64,000 nucleotides of DNA from Escherichia coli. Its GTDB lineage: Bacteria; Pseudomonadota; Gammaproteobacteria; Enterobacterales; Enterobacteriaceae. The stretch's first letter is position 1. Every line of letters begins with the position of its first letter. Below, one piece after another: positions 4,688-38,849 of this stretch. Below the pieces are notes generated by a model that was not told where the DNA came from, ran no database searches, and saw only the letters and a list, made by a program, of their open reading frames with translations. The DNA is taken from assembly GCF_048403405.1 (NCBI RefSeq), contig NZ_CP183129.1; one strand, given 5' to 3'. The translations under genes were made by a program, and so were the position numbers.

Positions 4688-5764
4688 ATGAAAGCACTGG
4701 CTCGGTTTGGCAAAGCCTTTGGCGGCTACAAGATGATCGATGTCCCACAACCCATTTGTGGCCCGGAAGATGTAGTGATTGAAATTAAAGCCGCGGCAAT
4801 CTGCGGCGCAGACATGAAGCACTACAATGTCGATAGCGGTTCTGATGAGTTTAACTCTATCCGCGGCCATGAGTTCGCAGGTTGTATTGCGCAGGTTGGT
4901 GAAAAAGTCAAAGACTGGAAAGTGGGGCAACGCGTCGTGTCGGATAACAGCGGTCACGTCTGCGGCGTTTGTCCGGCCTGTGAACAAGGTGATTTTCTGT
5001 GTTGTACAGAAAAAGTAAACCTTGGTCTGGATAACAATACCTGGGGCGGTGGTTTTTCCAAATATTGTCTGGTTCCTGGTGAAATTCTCAAAATTCATCG
5101 TCATGCATTGTGGGAAATCCCTGATGGTGTTGATTATGAGGACGCAGCCATACTTGACCCTATCTGTAATGCCTATAAATCCATCGCGCAGCAATCGAAA
5201 TTCCTCCCTGGTCAGGATGTGGTCGTCATCGGCACTGGCCCACTCGGGCTGTTCTCCGTACAAATGGCGCGGATTATGGGGGCGGTAAATATCGTCGTCG
5301 TTGGTCTACAAGAAGATGTGGCGGTCCGCTTCCCGGTTGCAAAAGAACTGGGTGCGACGGCAGTAGTAAATGGTTCTACCGAAGATGTGGTGGCGCGCTG
5401 CCAGCAAATTTGTGGCAAAGACAATCTGGGACTGGTGATTGAATGCTCCGGTGCCAATATCGCACTGAAACAAGCCATCGAAATGCTCCGTCCGAACGGG
5501 GAAGTGGTACGCGTTGGAATGGGCTTCAAACCTCTTGATTTCTCGATTAATGACATTACCGCCTGGAACAAAAGCATCATTGGGCATATGGCCTATGACT
5601 CCACCTCATGGCGTAACGCTCTCCGGCTATTAGCCAGCGGCGCTATCAAAGTCAAACCGATGATCACGCATCGTATCGGCCTGTCGCAATGGCGCGAAGG
5701 GTTTGATGCGATGGTCGATAAAACCGCAATCAAAGTGATCATGACTTACGACTTTGATGAATAA
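4688..5764 (+). CDS. ydjL: zinc-dependent alcohol/polyol dehydrogenase (MDR family)
   Basis: 358 aa; GHEFAG and Cys-rich structural zinc motif CGVCPACEQGDFLCC; first gene of compact ydj cluster. Confidence 0.85.
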   Translation: MKALARFGKAFGGYKMIDVPQPICGPEDVVIEIKAAAICGADMKHYNVDSGSDEFNSIRGHEFAGCIAQVGEKVKDWKVGQRVVSDNSGHVCGVCPACEQGDFLCCTEKVNLGLDNNTWGGGFSKYCLVPGEILKIHRHALWEIPDGVDYEDAAILDPICNAYKSIAQQSKFLPGQDVVVIGTGPLGLFSVQMARIMGAVNIVVVGLQEDVAVRFPVAKELGATAVVNGSTEDVVARCQQICGKDNLGLVIECSGANIALKQAIEMLRPNGEVVRVGMGFKPLDFSINDITAWNKSIIGHMAYDSTSWRNALRLLASGAIKVKPMITHRIGLSQWREGFDAMVDKTAIKVIMTYDFDE

Positions 5765-5790
5765 CTACTCTCCTGAAGGAACGTTATCGC

Positions 5791-7170
5791 ATGGAACAGA
5801 TAACAAAACCGCATTGTGGTGCACGGCTGGATCGCTTACCGGATTGCCGCTGGCATTCGTCAATGTTTGCCATCGTCTCGTTTGGCTTGCTTGTCTGCTG
5901 GAGTAATGCCGTTGGTGGCTTGATCCTCGCGCAGCTGAAAGAGTTGGGCTGGACAGATAATTCCACCACTGCCACATTCTCAGCAATCACGACCGCCGGA
6001 ATGTTTCTCGGTGCGCTGGTTGGCGGCATCATCGGTGACAAAACCGGTCGCAGAAATGCGTTCATCCTCTATGAGGCCATTCATATTGCCTCGATGGTGG
6101 TCGGTGCTTTTTCACCGAATATGGATTTCCTTATTGCCTGCCGTTTTGTGATGGGCGTTGGGCTGGGAGCTTTACTGGTGACGCTGTTTGCTGGTTTCAC
6201 CGAATATATGCCCGGTAGAAATCGCGGAACGTGGTCCAGTCGGGTTTCTTTTATTGGCAACTGGTCATATCCGCTCTGTTCATTGATTGCGATGGGACTC
6301 ACGCCGCTGATTAGTGCAGAGTGGAACTGGCGAGTACAACTGCTTATCCCTGCAATATTGTCGCTTATCGCTACGGCGCTGGCCTGGCGCTACTTTCCTG
6401 AATCCCCGCGCTGGCTGGAATCGCGCGGACGGTATCAGGAAGCCGAGAAAGTCATGCGGAGTATAGAAGAAGGCGTCATACGCCAGACGGGAAAACCTTT
6501 GCCGCCCGTGGTTATTGCTGATGACGGTAAAGCGCCACAAGCGGTGCCGTATTCAGCCTTAATGACAGGAGTATTACTGAAACGCGTGATATTAGGCTCT
6601 TGTGTGCTGATTGCCATGAACGTTGTGCAGTACACACTAATTAACTGGTTGCCAACAATATTCATGACCCAGGGGATTAATTTAAAAGACTCGATTGTTT
6701 TAAATACCATGAGTATGTTTGGCGCGCCATTTGGTATTTTTATTGCTATGCTGGTGATGGATAAAATTCCGCGTAAAACAATGGGTGTGGGGCTATTAAT
6801 CCTGATTGCGGTGCTCGGATATATCTATTCACTGCAAACCAGTATGTTGCTCATAACGTTGATTGGTTTCTTCCTGATTACTTTCGTCTATATGTACGTT
6901 TGCTATGCCTCGGCAGTGTATGTCCCTGAGATCTGGCCGACAGAGGCCAAATTACGTGGCTCCGGTCTGGCGAATGCAGTAGGGCGAATCAGTGGTATTG
7001 CCGCACCTTATGCCGTTGCAGTGCTGCTCAGTAGTTATGGCGTAACGGGAGTCTTTATTCTTCTGGGGGCGGTTTCAATTATTGTCGCAATTGCTATCGC
7101 CACCATTGGAATTGAAACCAAAGGTGTCTCCGTTGAAAGTTTAAGTATTGATGCAGTAGTCAATAAATAA
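5791..7170 (+). CDS. ydjK: MFS transporter (sugar/metabolite:H+ symporter type)
   Basis: 459 aa, about 12 predicted TM segments, MFS motif GDKTGRR; paralogous to YdjE in the same cluster. Confidence 0.85.
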   Translation: MEQITKPHCGARLDRLPDCRWHSSMFAIVSFGLLVCWSNAVGGLILAQLKELGWTDNSTTATFSAITTAGMFLGALVGGIIGDKTGRRNAFILYEAIHIASMVVGAFSPNMDFLIACRFVMGVGLGALLVTLFAGFTEYMPGRNRGTWSSRVSFIGNWSYPLCSLIAMGLTPLISAEWNWRVQLLIPAILSLIATALAWRYFPESPRWLESRGRYQEAEKVMRSIEEGVIRQTGKPLPPVVIADDGKAPQAVPYSALMTGVLLKRVILGSCVLIAMNVVQYTLINWLPTIFMTQGINLKDSIVLNTMSMFGAPFGIFIAMLVMDKIPRKTMGVGLLILIAVLGYIYSLQTSMLLITLIGFFLITFVYMYVCYASAVYVPEIWPTEAKLRGSGLANAVGRISGIAAPYAVAVLLSSYGVTGVFILLGAVSIIVAIAIATIGIETKGVSVESLSIDAVVNK

Positions 7171-15324: not shown

Positions 15325-17181
15325 TTAACGCACGTTGGCGCAGGTCAGGCAAAACGCATAACGGTTTTGTGGGTCGTTAAACGCGGCCAGCTTGTCGCTT
15401 TCACTTTTAACGGTAGAGGCTACCGAGGCCAGCGGTGCAGGTAACATGGCCTGGAACGCATCTGGCAACATTGCCCGGACAGAACCAGACATGTTGTCCA
15501 TCACTTTGTCGAAGAAGGTCGGTTCATCAACGTAGTATTCCAGATGCCACTGTTTCACTTTTGCCAGCTCTGCTGCTTTGGCGACCGCATCATCGAAATC
15601 CCCGAGACTATCGACCAGCCCGTTAGCTTTTGCATCCTGACCGGTCCAGACGTGGCCCTGGGCGATTTTATCAATCTGCTCCGGCGTCGAATGACGCGCA
15701 TCAGCAACCAGCGTGATAAAGCGTTTATAGCCATTCTCAATGCTTAACTGCATCATCTGCTGCGCTTCCGGCGGCAGTGCCCTGGTGATAGAAACATCCG
15801 CCAGCGGTGAAGTTGAGACACCATCAGTATGAACACCAATCGAATCCAGACTATTTTCTACGGTGGTGATCACGCCGAAGATACCGATAGAACCGGTCAG
15901 GGTGCTGGGGTTAGCCACAATGTAATTAGCTGGCGTGGAAATCCAGTAACCACCAGATGCTGCCATGCCACCCATCGATACAACCACAGGCTTACCCGCT
16001 GCCCGGGCTGCTGCCAGTTCAGCGCGAATCACTTCAGACGCGGTAACGCTGCCGCCTGGGCTATTAACACGCAGGACAATCGCTTTCACTTTCGGGTCAA
16101 GGCGAGCGTCGCGGATTTGTGCCGCAGTGGTATCACCGCCAACATTCCCCTGAGTTTCCTCGCCATCCATAATTGCGCCATTAGCGAAGACGACACCGAT
16201 ACTGTCACCGGTATCTGCCGGCGTTTTCAATGCGTAATCGTAATAACTGATGGCGCGATAATTTTTATCAGTTTTACTCCAGCCGAACTCTTTGGTCAGA
16301 GTTTTTTCGATTTCGGCACTCGATGCCAGTGCATCGACCAGCTTGTTTTCCAGCGCATATTTCGCGGTATCGCCACCGGTTTTGGTTAAACCCTCAAGCA
16401 CCCCTTGCGCGCCAGGGAATACCTGCTGAGCAGGGATCTGCCGGTTAGCGGCAACAGTATTCAGATAGTTTTGCCACAGCTCACCAATCCAGCGGCTGTC
16501 AGCTTCGCGGGCTGCAGGCGACATATCATCACGAATAAACGGTTCAACGGCAGATTTATACGTACCCACGCGGAACACATGGGTGGAAACTTTCAGCTTA
16601 TCCAGCAACGATTTGTAGTACAGACCGTTGGTGGCAAAGCCGTGCAGATCCACCACGCCTTGCGGTGACAGCCAAATTTTATTGGCGAAACTGGCGAGAT
16701 AATATTGCCCCTGGCTGTAGTTCTCGCCAACGGCATAAACCGGTTTCCCGCTGTCACGAAACTCTTTCAGAGCTTTGCCGATGTACTGCATAGACGGCTG
16801 GTCGCCACCTGCGAAGTTTTTCAGATCCATCACGATACCGGTGATATTGCGGTCATCCTTCGCCTGGCGAATGGTATTGACGATATCAAACAGTGAGTTT
16901 TCCTGCAGACGATCGGAACTGGCACCAAGCAGTTGGCGGCTTAATTTACTAAACCGCTGAGAACTGTCGGGTTTATCGACGATCACACCAGAAATGTCCA
17001 GCAGCAGTGCGCCACGACTGGCCGTTTCTTTCGAATCACCACCACTGACCTGCATCCAAATCCCCACACCAACCAGTACGAGAAAAATAAAGAACAGGTT
17101 AAGTACCATTTCACGGACGAAATTCAGCAGACGCCACGTCCATTTAAAAAATCCGGCAATAAATCGCCAAAGGGTTCGCAT
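15325..17181 (-). CDS. sppA: signal peptide peptidase A (protease IV, S49 family)
   Basis: 618 aa from MRTLWRF; N-terminal TM segment and tandem S49 peptidase domains. Confidence 0.9.
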
Positions 17182-17341
17182 GTATTCTCCCAACTAAAGG
17201 TCACACCTGTCACAGGCGCAATAGATGTGGTTATCGTAATGACCCAACCGGCACTTGTCAGCAGGAATTGCGGACTGGGCTGTAACAAAATCCACTCTCG
17301 TGTTAATTTTGTGAATAAATATCACGACAGGAGTTAATCAA

Positions 17342-17893
17342 ATGGATGCACTCGAACTATTGATCAATCGCCGTAGCGCCTCCCGCCTGGCTGAACCTGC
17401 GCCAACGGGTGAACAACTGCAAAACATCCTGCGTGCGGGTATGCGTGCGCCGGACCATAAGTCCATGCAACCGTGGCATTTTTTTGTGATTGAAGGGGAA
17501 GGGCGCGAGCGTTTCAGCGCCGTTCTGGAGCAGGGGGCGATTGCTGGCGGTAGTGATGACAAAGCCATCGACAAAGCCCGTAATGCGCCGTACCGCGCAC
17601 CGCTCATCATAACGGTGGTGGCAAAATGCGAAGAAAATCATAAAGTCCCGCGCTGGGAACAGGAAATGTCTGCGGGATGCGCGGTCATGGCGATGCAAAT
17701 GGCAGCAGTTGCCCAGGGGTTTGGCGGCATCTGGCGCAGTGGCGCATTAACTGAAAGTCCGGTAGTGCGTGAAGCATTCGGTTGCCGTGAGCAGGATAAA
17801 ATTGTCGGTTTTCTCTACCTTGGTACGCCGCAGCTGAAAGCATCTACGTCGATTAACGTCCCGGACCCGACGCCGTTTGTCACTTATTTCTGA
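17342..17893 (+). CDS. ydjA: NAD(P)H nitroreductase family protein
   Basis: 183 aa nitroreductase-like ORF upstream of selD. Confidence 0.8.
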
Positions 17894-18009
17894 TAATTGT
17901 CGCGAAACTGTCTGGATTGTGAGCAAAGGCGCAGGAATTCAGACACTCTCACTTATCACTTCACGGAATGAGGGTTACCATACCCGGATTGCATTGACAG
18001 GAGATGTCC

Positions 18010-19053
18010 ATGAGCGAGAACTCGATTCGTTTGACCCAATACAGCCACGGAGCTGGTTGCGGCTGTAAAATTTCCCCAAAAGTGTTGGAAACCATCCTGC
18101 ACAGTGAGCAGGCGAAGTTTGTTGATCCGAATTTGCTTGTGGGTAATGAAACCCGCGACGATGCGGCGGTGTACGATCTGGGCAATGGCACCAGCGTTAT
18201 CAGTACCACCGACTTCTTTATGCCGATCGTTGATAATCCTTTCGATTTTGGCCGCATTGCGGCGACTAACGCCATCAGCGATATCTTCGCGATGGGGGGC
18301 AAACCGATTATGGCGATTGCGATCCTCGGCTGGCCGATTAACAAACTTTCCCCGGAAATTGCCCGCGAAGTAACCGAAGGTGGACGCTATGCATGCCGTC
18401 AGGCGGGTATTGCGCTGGCTGGCGGTCACTCCATCGATGCGCCGGAGCCGATTTTTGGTCTGGCGGTAACGGGGATCGTACCGACCGAGCGGGTGAAGAA
18501 AAACAGTACCGCACAAGCCGGATGCAAACTGTTCCTGACGAAACCGCTGGGGATCGGCGTTCTTACCACGGCTGAGAAAAAATCACTGCTGAAACCAGAA
18601 CATCAGGGACTGGCGACGGAAGTGATGTGCCGGATGAACATCGCAGGCGCGTCCTTTGCCAACATCGAAGGCGTAAAAGCGATGACCGACGTTACGGGCT
18701 TTGGTCTGCTGGGGCATTTAAGCGAAATGTGTCAGGGTGCTGGTGTGCAGGCGCGCGTCGACTATGAAGCGATCCCGAAACTGCCGGGGGTTGAAGAGTA
18801 CATTAAGTTGGGCGCAGTGCCTGGCGGCACCGAACGTAACTTTGCCAGCTACGGTCATCTGATGGGTGAAATGCCGCGTGAAGTGCGCGATCTGCTGTGC
18901 GATCCGCAAACTTCTGGCGGTCTGCTGCTGGCGGTCATGCCGGAAGCAGAAAATGAGGTCAAAGCTACAGCCGCCGAGTTTGGCATTGAACTGACGGCGA
19001 TTGGCGAACTGGTGCCAGCGCGCGGCGGTCGTGCCATGGTTGAGATCCGTTAA
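18010..19053 (+). CDS. selD: selenide, water dikinase (selenophosphate synthetase)
   Basis: 347 aa from [20 protein letters not shown] (Cys-containing glycine-rich N-terminal loop); AGGAG SD 8 nt upstream. Confidence 0.9.
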
Positions 19054-19057
19054 TTCA

Positions 19058-21013
19058 ATGCGGTTGTTTATTGCCGAAAAACCGAGTCTGGCGCGCGCCA
19101 TTGCTGATGTCCTGCCCAAACCGCACCGGAAAGGCGATGGCTTTATCGAGTGCGGTAATGGTCAGGTGGTGACCTGGTGTATCGGTCACCTGCTTGAGCA
19201 GGCGCAGCCAGACGCCTACGACAGCCGCTATGCGCGCTGGAATCTTGCTGATTTGCCGATTGTCCCGGAAAAGTGGCAATTACAGCCCCGACCCTCCGTG
19301 ACCAAACAACTTAATGTCATCAAACGCTTCCTGCATGAAGCCAGCGAAATCGTTCACGCCGGTGACCCGGATCGCGAAGGGCAATTACTGGTGGATGAAG
19401 TGCTGGACTATCTGCAACTGGCACCGGAAAAGCGCCAGCAGGTGCAGCGTTGCTTGATAAACGACCTGAACCCGCAGGCGGTTGAGCGGGCGATCGACCG
19501 TCTTCGTTCCAACAGTGAGTTTGTGCCGTTGTGCGTTTCTGCACTGGCGCGAGCCCGAGCCGACTGGCTGTACGGCATCAATATGACCCGCGCTTACACC
19601 ATTCTCGGTCGCAATGCGGGTTATCAGGGCGTACTTTCCGTGGGACGCGTGCAGACGCCCGTACTCGGACTGGTGGTGCGCCGCGACGAAGAGATTGAAA
19701 ACTTCGTGGCGAAAGATTTCTTTGAAGTCAAAGCGCATATCGTGACACCTGCCGATGAGCGGTTTACCGCTATCTGGCAACCGAGCGAAGCGTGTGAACC
19801 TTATCAGGATGAAGAAGGGCGCTTGTTACATCGTCCGCTGGCGGAGCATGTGGTCAACCGCATCAGCGGCCAACCGGCTATTGTCACCAGCTATAACGAT
19901 AAACGGGAATCAGAATCCGCACCGCTGCCGTTTTCGCTTTCGGCGTTGCAGATTGAAGCGGCAAAACGCTTTGGTCTGAGTGCGCAGAACGTGCTTGATA
20001 TCTGCCAGAAGTTGTACGAAACGCACAAGCTAATCACTTATCCGCGTTCCGATTGTCGCTATCTGCCGGAAGAGCATTTTGCCGGACGCCACGCAGTGAT
20101 GAATGCCATCAGCGTTCATGCACCGGACTTGTTACCGCAGCCAGTGGTCGATCCAGATATACGCAACCGCTGCTGGGATGACAAAAAGGTCGATGCGCAC
20201 CACGCCATCATCCCGACCGCACGGAGTTCTGCGATCAACCTGACGGAGAACGAAGCGAAGGTCTATAACCTGATTGCCCGTCAGTATTTGATGCAGTTCT
20301 GCCCGGATGCGGTGTTCCGCAAGTGTGTTATCGAACTGGATATTGCCAAAGGCAAATTTGTCGCTAAAGCGCGTTTTCTTGCTGAAGCAGGCTGGCGCAC
20401 GCTGTTAGGCAGCAAAGAGCGCGATGAAGAAAACGACGGTACGCCATTGCCTGTGGTGGCGAAAGGCGATGAGTTGCTGTGTGAAAAAGGTGAAGTGGTA
20501 GAGCGGCAAACCCAGCCGCCGCGTCATTTTACCGATGCAACACTGCTTTCGGCGATGACCGGGATAGCACGTTTTGTGCAGGACAAAGATCTGAAAAAGA
20601 TCCTTCGTGCGACCGATGGTCTGGGGACAGAAGCGACTCGCGCCGGGATTATTGAACTGCTGTTCAAGCGAGGCTTCCTGACCAAAAAAGGGCGCTATAT
20701 CCACTCCACCGACGCCGGAAAAGCATTATTCCATTCGCTGCCAGAGATGGCGACGCGACCGGACATGACCGCGCACTGGGAATCGGTGCTGACGCAAATC
20801 AGCGAAAAGCAGTGTCGCTACCAGGACTTTATGCAACCGCTGGTGGGGACATTGTACCAGTTGATTGATCAGGCAAAGCGCACGTCGGTAAGGCAGTTTC
20901 GGGGAATAATGGCTCCCGGCGGTGGAGAAGGGAAGAAAAAGGATTCGCCACGCAAGAGAGCGCCGAAAAAAAGCCCGCCATCAGAAGAGGCGGGCAATGG
21001 AGTGATAACATAA
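19058..21013 (+). CDS. topB: DNA topoisomerase III
   Basis: starts [10 protein letters not shown] (Toprim) 4 nt after selD stop; type IA topoisomerase domains; lysine-rich C-terminal tail. Confidence 0.9.
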
Positions 21014-21050
21014 AGGTTCTTTCAACCATCTGATACTGAAGATTTTTATG

Positions 21051-21080
21051 GCCGGATTAGGCGTTTGCGCTGTATCCGGC
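21051..21080. repeat. REP-like palindromic unit in the 77-bp topB-gdhA junction
   Basis: GCCGGAT...ATCCGGC inverted repeat resembling REP consensus. Confidence 0.5.
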
Positions 21081-21089
21081 ACAATTGTC

Positions 21090-22433
21090 TTAAATCACGC
21101 CCTGGCTTAACATCGCATCCGCAACCTTCACAAAACCGGCAATGTTCGCGCCCTGCACGTAGTTGGTTTGCTCACCTTCACCACCATGCTCAACACAGGC
21201 ATGGTGGATATCCAGCATGATGTGATGCAAACGTGCGTCAACTTTCTCGGCTTTCCAGCCCAGGCGCGCAGCGTTTTGCGCCATTTCCAGGCCCGATGTT
21301 GCTACACCGCCAGCATTAGCCGCTTTACCCGGTGCAAACAGTACGCCTGCCTGCTGGAACAGTTCAGTCGCTTCGATGGTGGTCGGCATATTTGCCCCTT
21401 CGGCGACGGCTTTAACGCCATTGGCGATAAGCTGATGCGCGGCGTCAACATCCAGTTCGTTCTGGGTGGCGCAAGGCAGGGCGATATCAACTGGTACAGA
21501 CCACGGCTGTTGGCCTTCGAGATAGACCAGACCAAATTCTTTGGCGTAATCTGCCACTCGACCATCGCGGCTGGCTTTGATTTCGATAAGACGCGCCAGT
21601 TTCTCTTTCGTGAATCCGCTTTCATCAACTACAGTGCCACTGGAGTCTGACGCAGTGATCACACGAGCACCAAATTCCATCGCTTTTTCGATAGCGTACT
21701 GGGCGACGTTGCCGGAGCCAGAAACGGAAACGCGCATTCCTTCAAAACCCATACCGTGGCGTTTTAGCATTGCTTCTGTGAAATAAACCAGACCGTAGCC
21801 GGTAGCTTCCGGGCGAATAAGACTGCCGCCAAATGAAAGGCCCTTACCGGTGAAGACGCAGGCGGTATTGTTGGAGAGCTTTTTCATCATCCCCGCCATA
21901 AAGCCGACTTCACGACCACCAACCCCGATATCACCTGCCGGAACGTCGGTATCCGCGCCCAGGTGGCGATACAGTTCAGTCATCAGCGCCTGGCAAAAAC
22001 GCATCACTTCACCTTCGCTTTTTCCTTTCGGATCGAAATCGCTGCCGCCTTTACCACCGCCCATCGGCAGAGTAGTCAGGGCATTTTTGAAGGTTTGTTC
22101 GAAGCCGAGGAATTTGAGAATGGAAAGGTTAACTGACGGATGGAAGCGCATACCGCCTTTGTACGGGCCGATGGCAGAGCTGAACTGCACACGCCATGCA
22201 CGGTTGACCTGTACCTGGTTGCGATCATCAACCCATACCACGCGAAACTGGATCACGCGCTCCGGTTCAACCAGACGCTCCAGTAATGACATCTGGCGAT
22301 ATTTTGGATTTTGTTCAAGAAAAGGCCAGAGTGTGGTCATTACTTCACGAACGGCTTGCGCGAACTCGGTTTGATTCGGGTCGCGCTTTTGGACATGGTT
22401 GAGGAATGACTCCAGAGAATATGTCTGATCCAT
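21090..22433 (-). CDS. gdhA: NADP-specific glutamate dehydrogenase
   Basis: 447 aa; GDH catalytic region motif PMGGGKGG. Confidence 0.95.
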   Translation of the reverse strand: MDQTYSLESFLNHVQKRDPNQTEFAQAVREVMTTLWPFLEQNPKYRQMSLLERLVEPERVIQFRVVWVDDRNQVQVNRAWRVQFSSAIGPYKGGMRFHPSVNLSILKFLGFEQTFKNALTTLPMGGGKGGSDFDPKGKSEGEVMRFCQALMTELYRHLGADTDVPAGDIGVGGREVGFMAGMMKKLSNNTACVFTGKGLSFGGSLIRPEATGYGLVYFTEAMLKRHGMGFEGMRVSVSGSGNVAQYAIEKAMEFGARVITASDSSGTVVDESGFTKEKLARLIEIKASRDGRVADYAKEFGLVYLEGQQPWSVPVDIALPCATQNELDVDAAHQLIANGVKAVAEGANMPTTIEATELFQQAGVLFAPGKAANAGGVATSGLEMAQNAARLGWKAEKVDARLHHIMLDIHHACVEHGGEGEQTNYVQGANIAGFVKVADAMLSQGVI

Positions 22434-22668: not shown

Positions 22669-22941
22669 GTGAGTCGAGCATTGTTCGCCGTAGTATTAGC
22701 ATTTCCATTAATTGCACTGGCTAACCCGCATTATCGTCCGGACGTGGAGGTAAACGTACCGCCAGAAGTGTTCAGTTCAGGCGGGCAGTCAGCGCAGCCC
22801 TGTACTCAGTGCTGCATTTATCAGGATCAAAATTATTCTGAAGGGGCGGTAATTAAAGCCGAAGGAATACTGCTGCAATGCCAGCGTGATGACAAAACCC
22901 TTAGCACTAATCCGCTGGTCTGGCGGCGCGTAAAGCCATAA
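22669..22941 (+). CDS. ynjH: DUF1496 family small secreted protein
   Basis: 90 aa with N-terminal signal-like segment; 3' end overlaps nudG convergently. Confidence 0.7.
   Translation: MSRALFAVVLAFPLIALANPHYRPDVEVNVPPEVFSSGGQSAQPCTQCCIYQDQNYSEGAVIKAEGILLQCQRDDKTLSTNPLVWRRVKP

Positions 22942-32785: not shown

Positions 32786-38849
<6,064 letters not shown>

Follow-up and report, generated by a model that had tools for sequence, protein, structure and literature searches.

The closest described system is the ydjA-selD-topB operon of Escherichia coli K-12, which Sawers, Heider, Zehelein and Böck (J Bacteriol 1991) reportedly described under the name orf183 (ydjA)-selD-topB, and in which neither orf183 nor topB is said to be needed for selenoprotein synthesis. 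The unit was entered as selD-topB in a 2022 paper (PMC8803141), and a full-text literature search on selD together with topB, topoisomerase or ydjA returned one operon table as its sole match. The K-12 genes (b1765-b1764-b1763) lie on the minus strand, where topB ends at 1846960 and selD starts at 1846965, so the two are 4 nt apart.

The second point of comparison is the set of E. coli gene pairs in which Huber et al. examined termination-reinitiation, such as hyfHI, ydbH-ynbE, menDH and astDB. These pairs are co-oriented, share one transcript and have a stop-to-start distance between -8 and +6 nt. They overlap by -1 or -4 nt, usually have a Shine-Dalgarno (SD) sequence inside the upstream gene and often encode subunits of one complex. 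Such distances are common, since 707 of 2987 same-strand pairs in E. coli (24%) fall between -8 and +6 nt (Huber et al., PMC10666635). In E. coli, 30-95% of reinitiation survives at a spacing of +2 nt (a loss of 5-70%), while hardly any is left at +38 nt (PMC10666635). Removal of the SD lowers reinitiation by 60-100% in four of five E. coli pairs (PMC6728339), and still the SD is not strictly required for reinitiation in every pair (PMC12548453, PMC6728339). The relative translation efficiency (TE) of overlapping pairs spreads as widely as that of other pairs.

The window analysed here, a stretch of 64 kb of E. coli chromosome, carries the same three genes on its plus strand. Gene coordinates follow RefSeq for CFSAN061763, a strain that has the same sequence over 17200-21200 and differs from the window by indels outside that region, so that some annotated starts there are shifted. 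The unit begins with ydjA (17342-17893), a gene of the NAD(P)H nitroreductase family (NCBIfam NF008088, 374 bits), followed by a spacer of 116 nt (17894-18009), by selD, which encodes selenide, water dikinase (18010-19053; NF002098, 618.6 bits), and by topB as the last gene, which encodes a DNA topoisomerase III of 651 aa (19058-21013; TIGR01056, 1021.9 bits). All three proteins score above the NCBIfam curated cut-offs. Read directly in the sequence, the selD stop is the TAA at 19051-19053, the spacer is TTCA (19054-19057) and the topB ATG occupies 19058-19060, in the codon context GAG ATC CGT TAA TTCA ATG CGG TTG TTT. The gap of 4 nt and the position of ydjA upstream on the same strand are thus as given in the preliminary description of this DNA. 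For selD, a second in-frame ATG lies 6 nt upstream of the annotated start (18004-18012) and would give 349 aa instead of 347 aa; some gene callers take this longer form.

The unit is flanked by sppA (15325-17181, minus strand) and by gdhA (21090-22433, minus strand), which is convergent with topB and separated from it by a gap of 76 nt (21014-21089) that holds a REP-like palindrome, GCCGGAT...ATCCGGC (21051-21080). The order, the strand and both gaps (116 nt and 4 nt) are equal in K-12 and in the window, and sppA and gdhA flank the unit in both. The two strains differ at its 3' side, where K-12 has ynjI (b1762, DUF1266) between topB and gdhA, while the window strain lacks ynjI and has the 76-nt spacer instead. 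TopB has 653 aa in K-12 and 651 aa here, with a different C-terminal tail; this tail is variable (window 20830-21013), some Klebsiella entries having 672-674 aa, and the TopB of the window shares 97% identity with the form common in E. coli. Beyond the unit, the 3' ends of the convergent genes ynjH (plus strand) and nudG (minus strand) overlap by 35 nt at 22907-22941 in the RefSeq annotation, and espL1, a type III secretion effector gene, adjoins yniD at about 59.6-61.5 kb of the window. A scan of the full 64-kb window with Rfam gave no family at gathering score.

The junction is nearly invariant within the species. The region 17200-21200 matches several complete genomes at 100%, is present in 5420 of 5426 and has at least 95% identity in 5410 of 5425, and of the 5426 complete E. 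coli genomes 5425 contain a single copy of an 80-nt probe that spans the junction. The 4-nt gap is kept, too, in the most divergent of the E. coli matches. Such a gap is also ordinary in its surroundings: ydjI-ydjH and ydjY-ydjX are likewise separated by 4 nt, the genes of astCADBE (32822-38849) overlap by 4 nt, with 8 nt at astB-astE, and 14 of the 41 same-strand pairs of neighbours in the window are at most 10 nt apart. The selD-topB gap is not unusual and no rarer than chance. The astD-astB pair, overlapping in the window, is among those of the termination-reinitiation study of Huber et al. 2019 (PMC6728339).

A SelD scan over one genome per species gave 80 loci for comparison. The ydjA-selD-topB synteny is kept at all 31 loci of Enterobacterales and Photobacterium and is missing from the remaining 49, among them Pasteurellaceae, Aeromonas, Pseudomonas and Burkholderiales. 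The junction is the ordinary 3' junction of the already known E. coli ydjA-selD-topB operon, and the view that selenium metabolism and a decatenating topoisomerase make an unexpected pair does not hold, as the unit selD-topB is published (PMC8803141) and its synteny is kept across Enterobacterales. Judged from protein alignment, ATG 19058 is the true topB start, because TopB residue 1 aligns there at 31 of 31 related loci and several relatives have an in-frame stop upstream. The upstream candidates TTG 19001, GTG 19031 and TTG 19040 were rejected because in relatives this frame either is closed by a stop or offers no start codon, and because TopB homology sets in at the ATG.

The topB start has no functional SD at a usable spacing. 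Its best duplex with the 9-nt anti-SD tail, at a distance of 12 nt to the ATG, reaches -2.7 kcal/mol; the 62 annotated starts of the window, some of which are mis-registered by indels, have a median of -5.95. With the 13-nt 16S rRNA tail and an aligned spacing of 3-10 nt, topB reaches -0.3 kcal/mol and both selD and ydjA reach -8.4, the latter with AGGAG at an aligned spacing of 6. The published anti-SD scores agree, with -2.28 for topB and -7.78 for selD and ydjA (PMC5318159 supplement). The sole complementarity to the 16S rRNA 3' tail is GAGAUC in the final selD codons (19042-19047), at an aligned spacing of 14 nt, and its codons (I-E-I) are kept as protein sequence in relatives. Neither GAGAUC nor GAGG in these last codons qualifies as the topB SD, their aligned spacings of 12-20 nt being too far, and the duplex scan detected no functional SD in the selD 3' end. 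The preliminary description was thus right in denying topB a usable ribosome-binding site of its own, and wrong in arguing that there is no room for one, because the SDs of tightly packed genes sit inside the upstream coding sequence, as they do in relatives where topB follows mnmH.

In these relatives, Hafnia, two Serratia, two Edwardsiella and Budvicia, a gene of 364-377 aa lies between selD and topB. It is mnmH (selU, also ybbB), which encodes tRNA 2-selenouridine synthase (NF008749, E about 1e-185), and it was located at 5044-6177 of locus L019, at 5044-6162 of L021 and also in L023, L025 and L027. The mnmH start overlaps or abuts the selD stop in these Enterobacterales loci, and its stop overlaps the topB ATG by 1 nt (TGATG or TAATG) in five of the six, the stop in E. 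hoshinae (L027) being 8 nt upstream. Photobacterium (L030, L031, L034) also has mnmH between selD and topB, followed by a spacer of roughly 150-250 nt. The eight loci with mnmH or a relic of it, except Budvicia, have GGUGA at an aligned spacing of 5-6 before topB (-7.2 to -8.7 kcal/mol), and the Serratia-type SD motif upstream of the topB ATG is CGGUGAAU.

The relics are found in Yersinia, where the selD-topB spacer has 32-43 nt and its last ~12 nt, CGGTGAATG directly before the ATG, match the 3' end of Serratia mnmH. They are open reading frames of 7-18 codons that end in TGATG on the topB start (5042-5090 of L017 and 5042-5079 of L018), and each resembles a scar left by an mnmH deletion in which the SD of topB was spared. 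The gene mnmH directly follows selD in 46 of the 80 sampled loci, and because this adjacency is so widespread the ancestral order was probably selD-mnmH-topB.

In E. coli and other Enterobacteriaceae, by contrast, mnmH is absent from the locus, selD abuts topB and the GGUGA of the mnmH 3' end is gone. The two genes adjoin at 2-5 nt in 19 loci (14 Enterobacteriaceae, three Photorhabdus, Morganella and Arsenophonus), and selD also directly abuts topB in Kosakonia, Klebsiella oxytoca and Pseudescherichia, three further species among the matches of a TopB protein search, which were all Enterobacteriaceae with at least 87% identity. The spacer keeps its length and not its sequence, with the variants ttca, cccc, ttcg, ctcg, gtcg, accg, aaac, tcc, ttc, ttt, tatcc and ac. 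At all 19 selD-abutting loci topB is without a well-placed SD, so it appears that Enterobacteriaceae and Morganellaceae lost mnmH here and, with it, the SD of topB.

Transcription of the unit was examined by consensus scan, which found no sigma-70-like promoter on the plus strand in 16800-21600. No terminator with a T-tract came up after topB in the terminator scan, and the REP-like palindrome is likely the end of the transcript. The three co-oriented genes are on record as a transcription unit, entered as selD-topB in PMC8803141. Co-transcription of selD and topB is probable from this entry, from their comparable mRNA levels in K-12 (256 and 142) and from a gap of 4 nt that is too short for a terminator and a promoter. 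A second promoter for selD-topB probably lies in the ydjA-selD spacer or inside ydjA. This is suggested because selD mRNA in K-12 is 2.2-fold that of ydjA, because the unit is entered as selD-topB and because phoC splits the equivalent spacer elsewhere; the consensus scan shows no promoter in the ydjA-selD spacer of the window. In Klebsiella oxytoca, Kosakonia cowanii and several further Enterobacteriaceae (L006 2996-3745, L086 943-1689, L088 979-1725, and also L008, L012, L015 and L020), ydjA and selD are separated by phoC, a minus-strand gene for a class A acid phosphatase (NF045654), and selD-topB must therefore be transcribed separately there.

A promoter inside selD would give topB a separate transcript, uncoupled from selD in both transcription and translation. 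The somewhat uneven mRNA coverage of topB (Gini_mRNA 0.353) is in keeping with this, yet no plus-strand promoter-like site is seen in selD, coverage of selD is even (Gini_mRNA 0.265, under the even-coverage filter of 0.45; PMC5318159 supplement), and topB mRNA is 0.55 of selD mRNA and not higher. The unit is entered as selD-topB (PMC8803141), and a separate topB transcript would lack an SD all the same. An internal promoter is thus considered improbable. Of the two features that the preliminary description set against its own reading, an internal promoter and a functional SD within the selD 3' end, neither was seen.

Expression data for K-12 are available for the three genes (PMC5318159 supplement), with mRNA levels of 118 for ydjA, 256 for selD and 142 for topB, ribosome densities of 220, 266 and 39.6, and TE values of 1.87, 1.04 and 0.28, respectively. 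The ribosome density of topB is 6.7-fold lower than that of selD (15%), a level that would fit coupled and de novo initiation alike. If coupling between selD and topB operates, it would be weak and far from stoichiometric, because the ribosome density and the TE of topB are so far below those of selD, and such non-stoichiometric coupling fits the low abundance of topoisomerase III, which is 9.4 ppm against 134 ppm for topoisomerase I (PMC4125114).

Coupling may act by RNA unfolding, in which structure masks the downstream start until ribosomes translating the end of the upstream gene open it, a classical mechanism (review PMC12548453). At this junction one predicted fold has a 4-bp stem (CCGU/GCGG) that can bracket the stop and start codons, which is trivial, while the folds as a whole are no more stable than dinucleotide shuffles (120 nt, z = +1.35, with 189 of 200 shuffles at least as stable; 70 nt, z = -0.30). 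A hairpin occluding the topB start was rejected for this reason, no stable structure that sequesters the start was found, and these z-scores make coupling by unfolding very improbable here.

The distance between stop and start, +4 nt in co-oriented genes, lies within the range of about -8 to +6 nt for termination-reinitiation (PMC10666635), and it is estimated that there is roughly an even chance that topB is started by inefficient termination-reinitiation after selD, the likeliest of the mechanisms considered. In this mechanism the selD message would be the sole transcript of topB, which forms its distal part, and a minority of the ribosomes that stop at the selD UAA would start again at the AUG 4 nt further on. 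The ribosomes that start topB would thus be those that have just finished selD, and the inefficiency of the step would keep topoisomerase III at its characteristic low level. Compared with the pairs of Huber et al., selD-topB has a +4 spacing instead of an overlap, no SD, functionally unrelated products and a translation ratio far from 1:1. The missing SD (-0.3 kcal/mol; aSD -2.28) is unfavourable to reinitiation, and two published results count against it at topB, namely the loss of reinitiation on SD removal cited above and the bioBF pair, in which a very weak SD goes with de novo initiation and not with coupling (PMC6728339).

The same bioBF pair, overlapping and with a weak SD, favours SD-less de novo initiation, in which free 30S subunits would bind the unstructured A/U-rich start region of topB (UUAAUUCAAUGCGGUUGUUUAUU) regardless of selD, and the short gap would be the result of compaction after the loss of mnmH. 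The start region is indeed no more structured than shuffles, and its Gini index in vivo over -20 to +40 (0.416) is near that of ydjA (0.426; PMC5318159 supplement). The TE of 0.28 also fits a poor ribosome-binding site, and this low value is equally expected from weak de novo initiation and from the high structure of topB over its whole ORF (Gini 0.516; PMC5318159 supplement). Against de novo initiation stands the comparison of loci, in which the topB ATG lies at most 8 nt after a co-oriented upstream stop, or overlaps it, in 27 of 31 cases, the partner being selD in 19, mnmH in six and the mnmH relic in two. Abutment to selD and loss of the SD are, moreover, perfectly associated, which suggests that proximity to the terminating ribosome compensates for the missing SD. 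De novo initiation is thus possible, though not probable. The main argument for reinitiation remains that these 27 loci keep the short distance whatever the partner, from which nearness to the terminating ribosome would appear to matter for topB.

The fixed place of topB at the tail of a selenium-utilisation operon, ydjA-selD-[mnmH]-topB, in Enterobacterales and Photobacterium may be read further. Topoisomerase III has RNA-topoisomerase activity. It is conceivable that in Enterobacteriaceae TopB strictly depends on ribosomes that finish selD and that a bond in function, such as one linking tRNA selenation to this activity, underlies the linkage rather than hitch-hiking, a reading that is regarded as quite improbable.

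As a discovery the junction carries little weight, since both operon and tight junction belong to the textbook-level annotation of E. coli. Its modest interest lies in what the sequence says about the scarcity of topoisomerase III, with no SD, a distal position in the operon and a TE of about a quarter of that of selD, and in an evolutionary account in which the loss of mnmH would have taken the SD of topB and left topB abutting selD. The selD-topB pair is thereby a clean natural test case for SD-less reinitiation at a +4 spacing.
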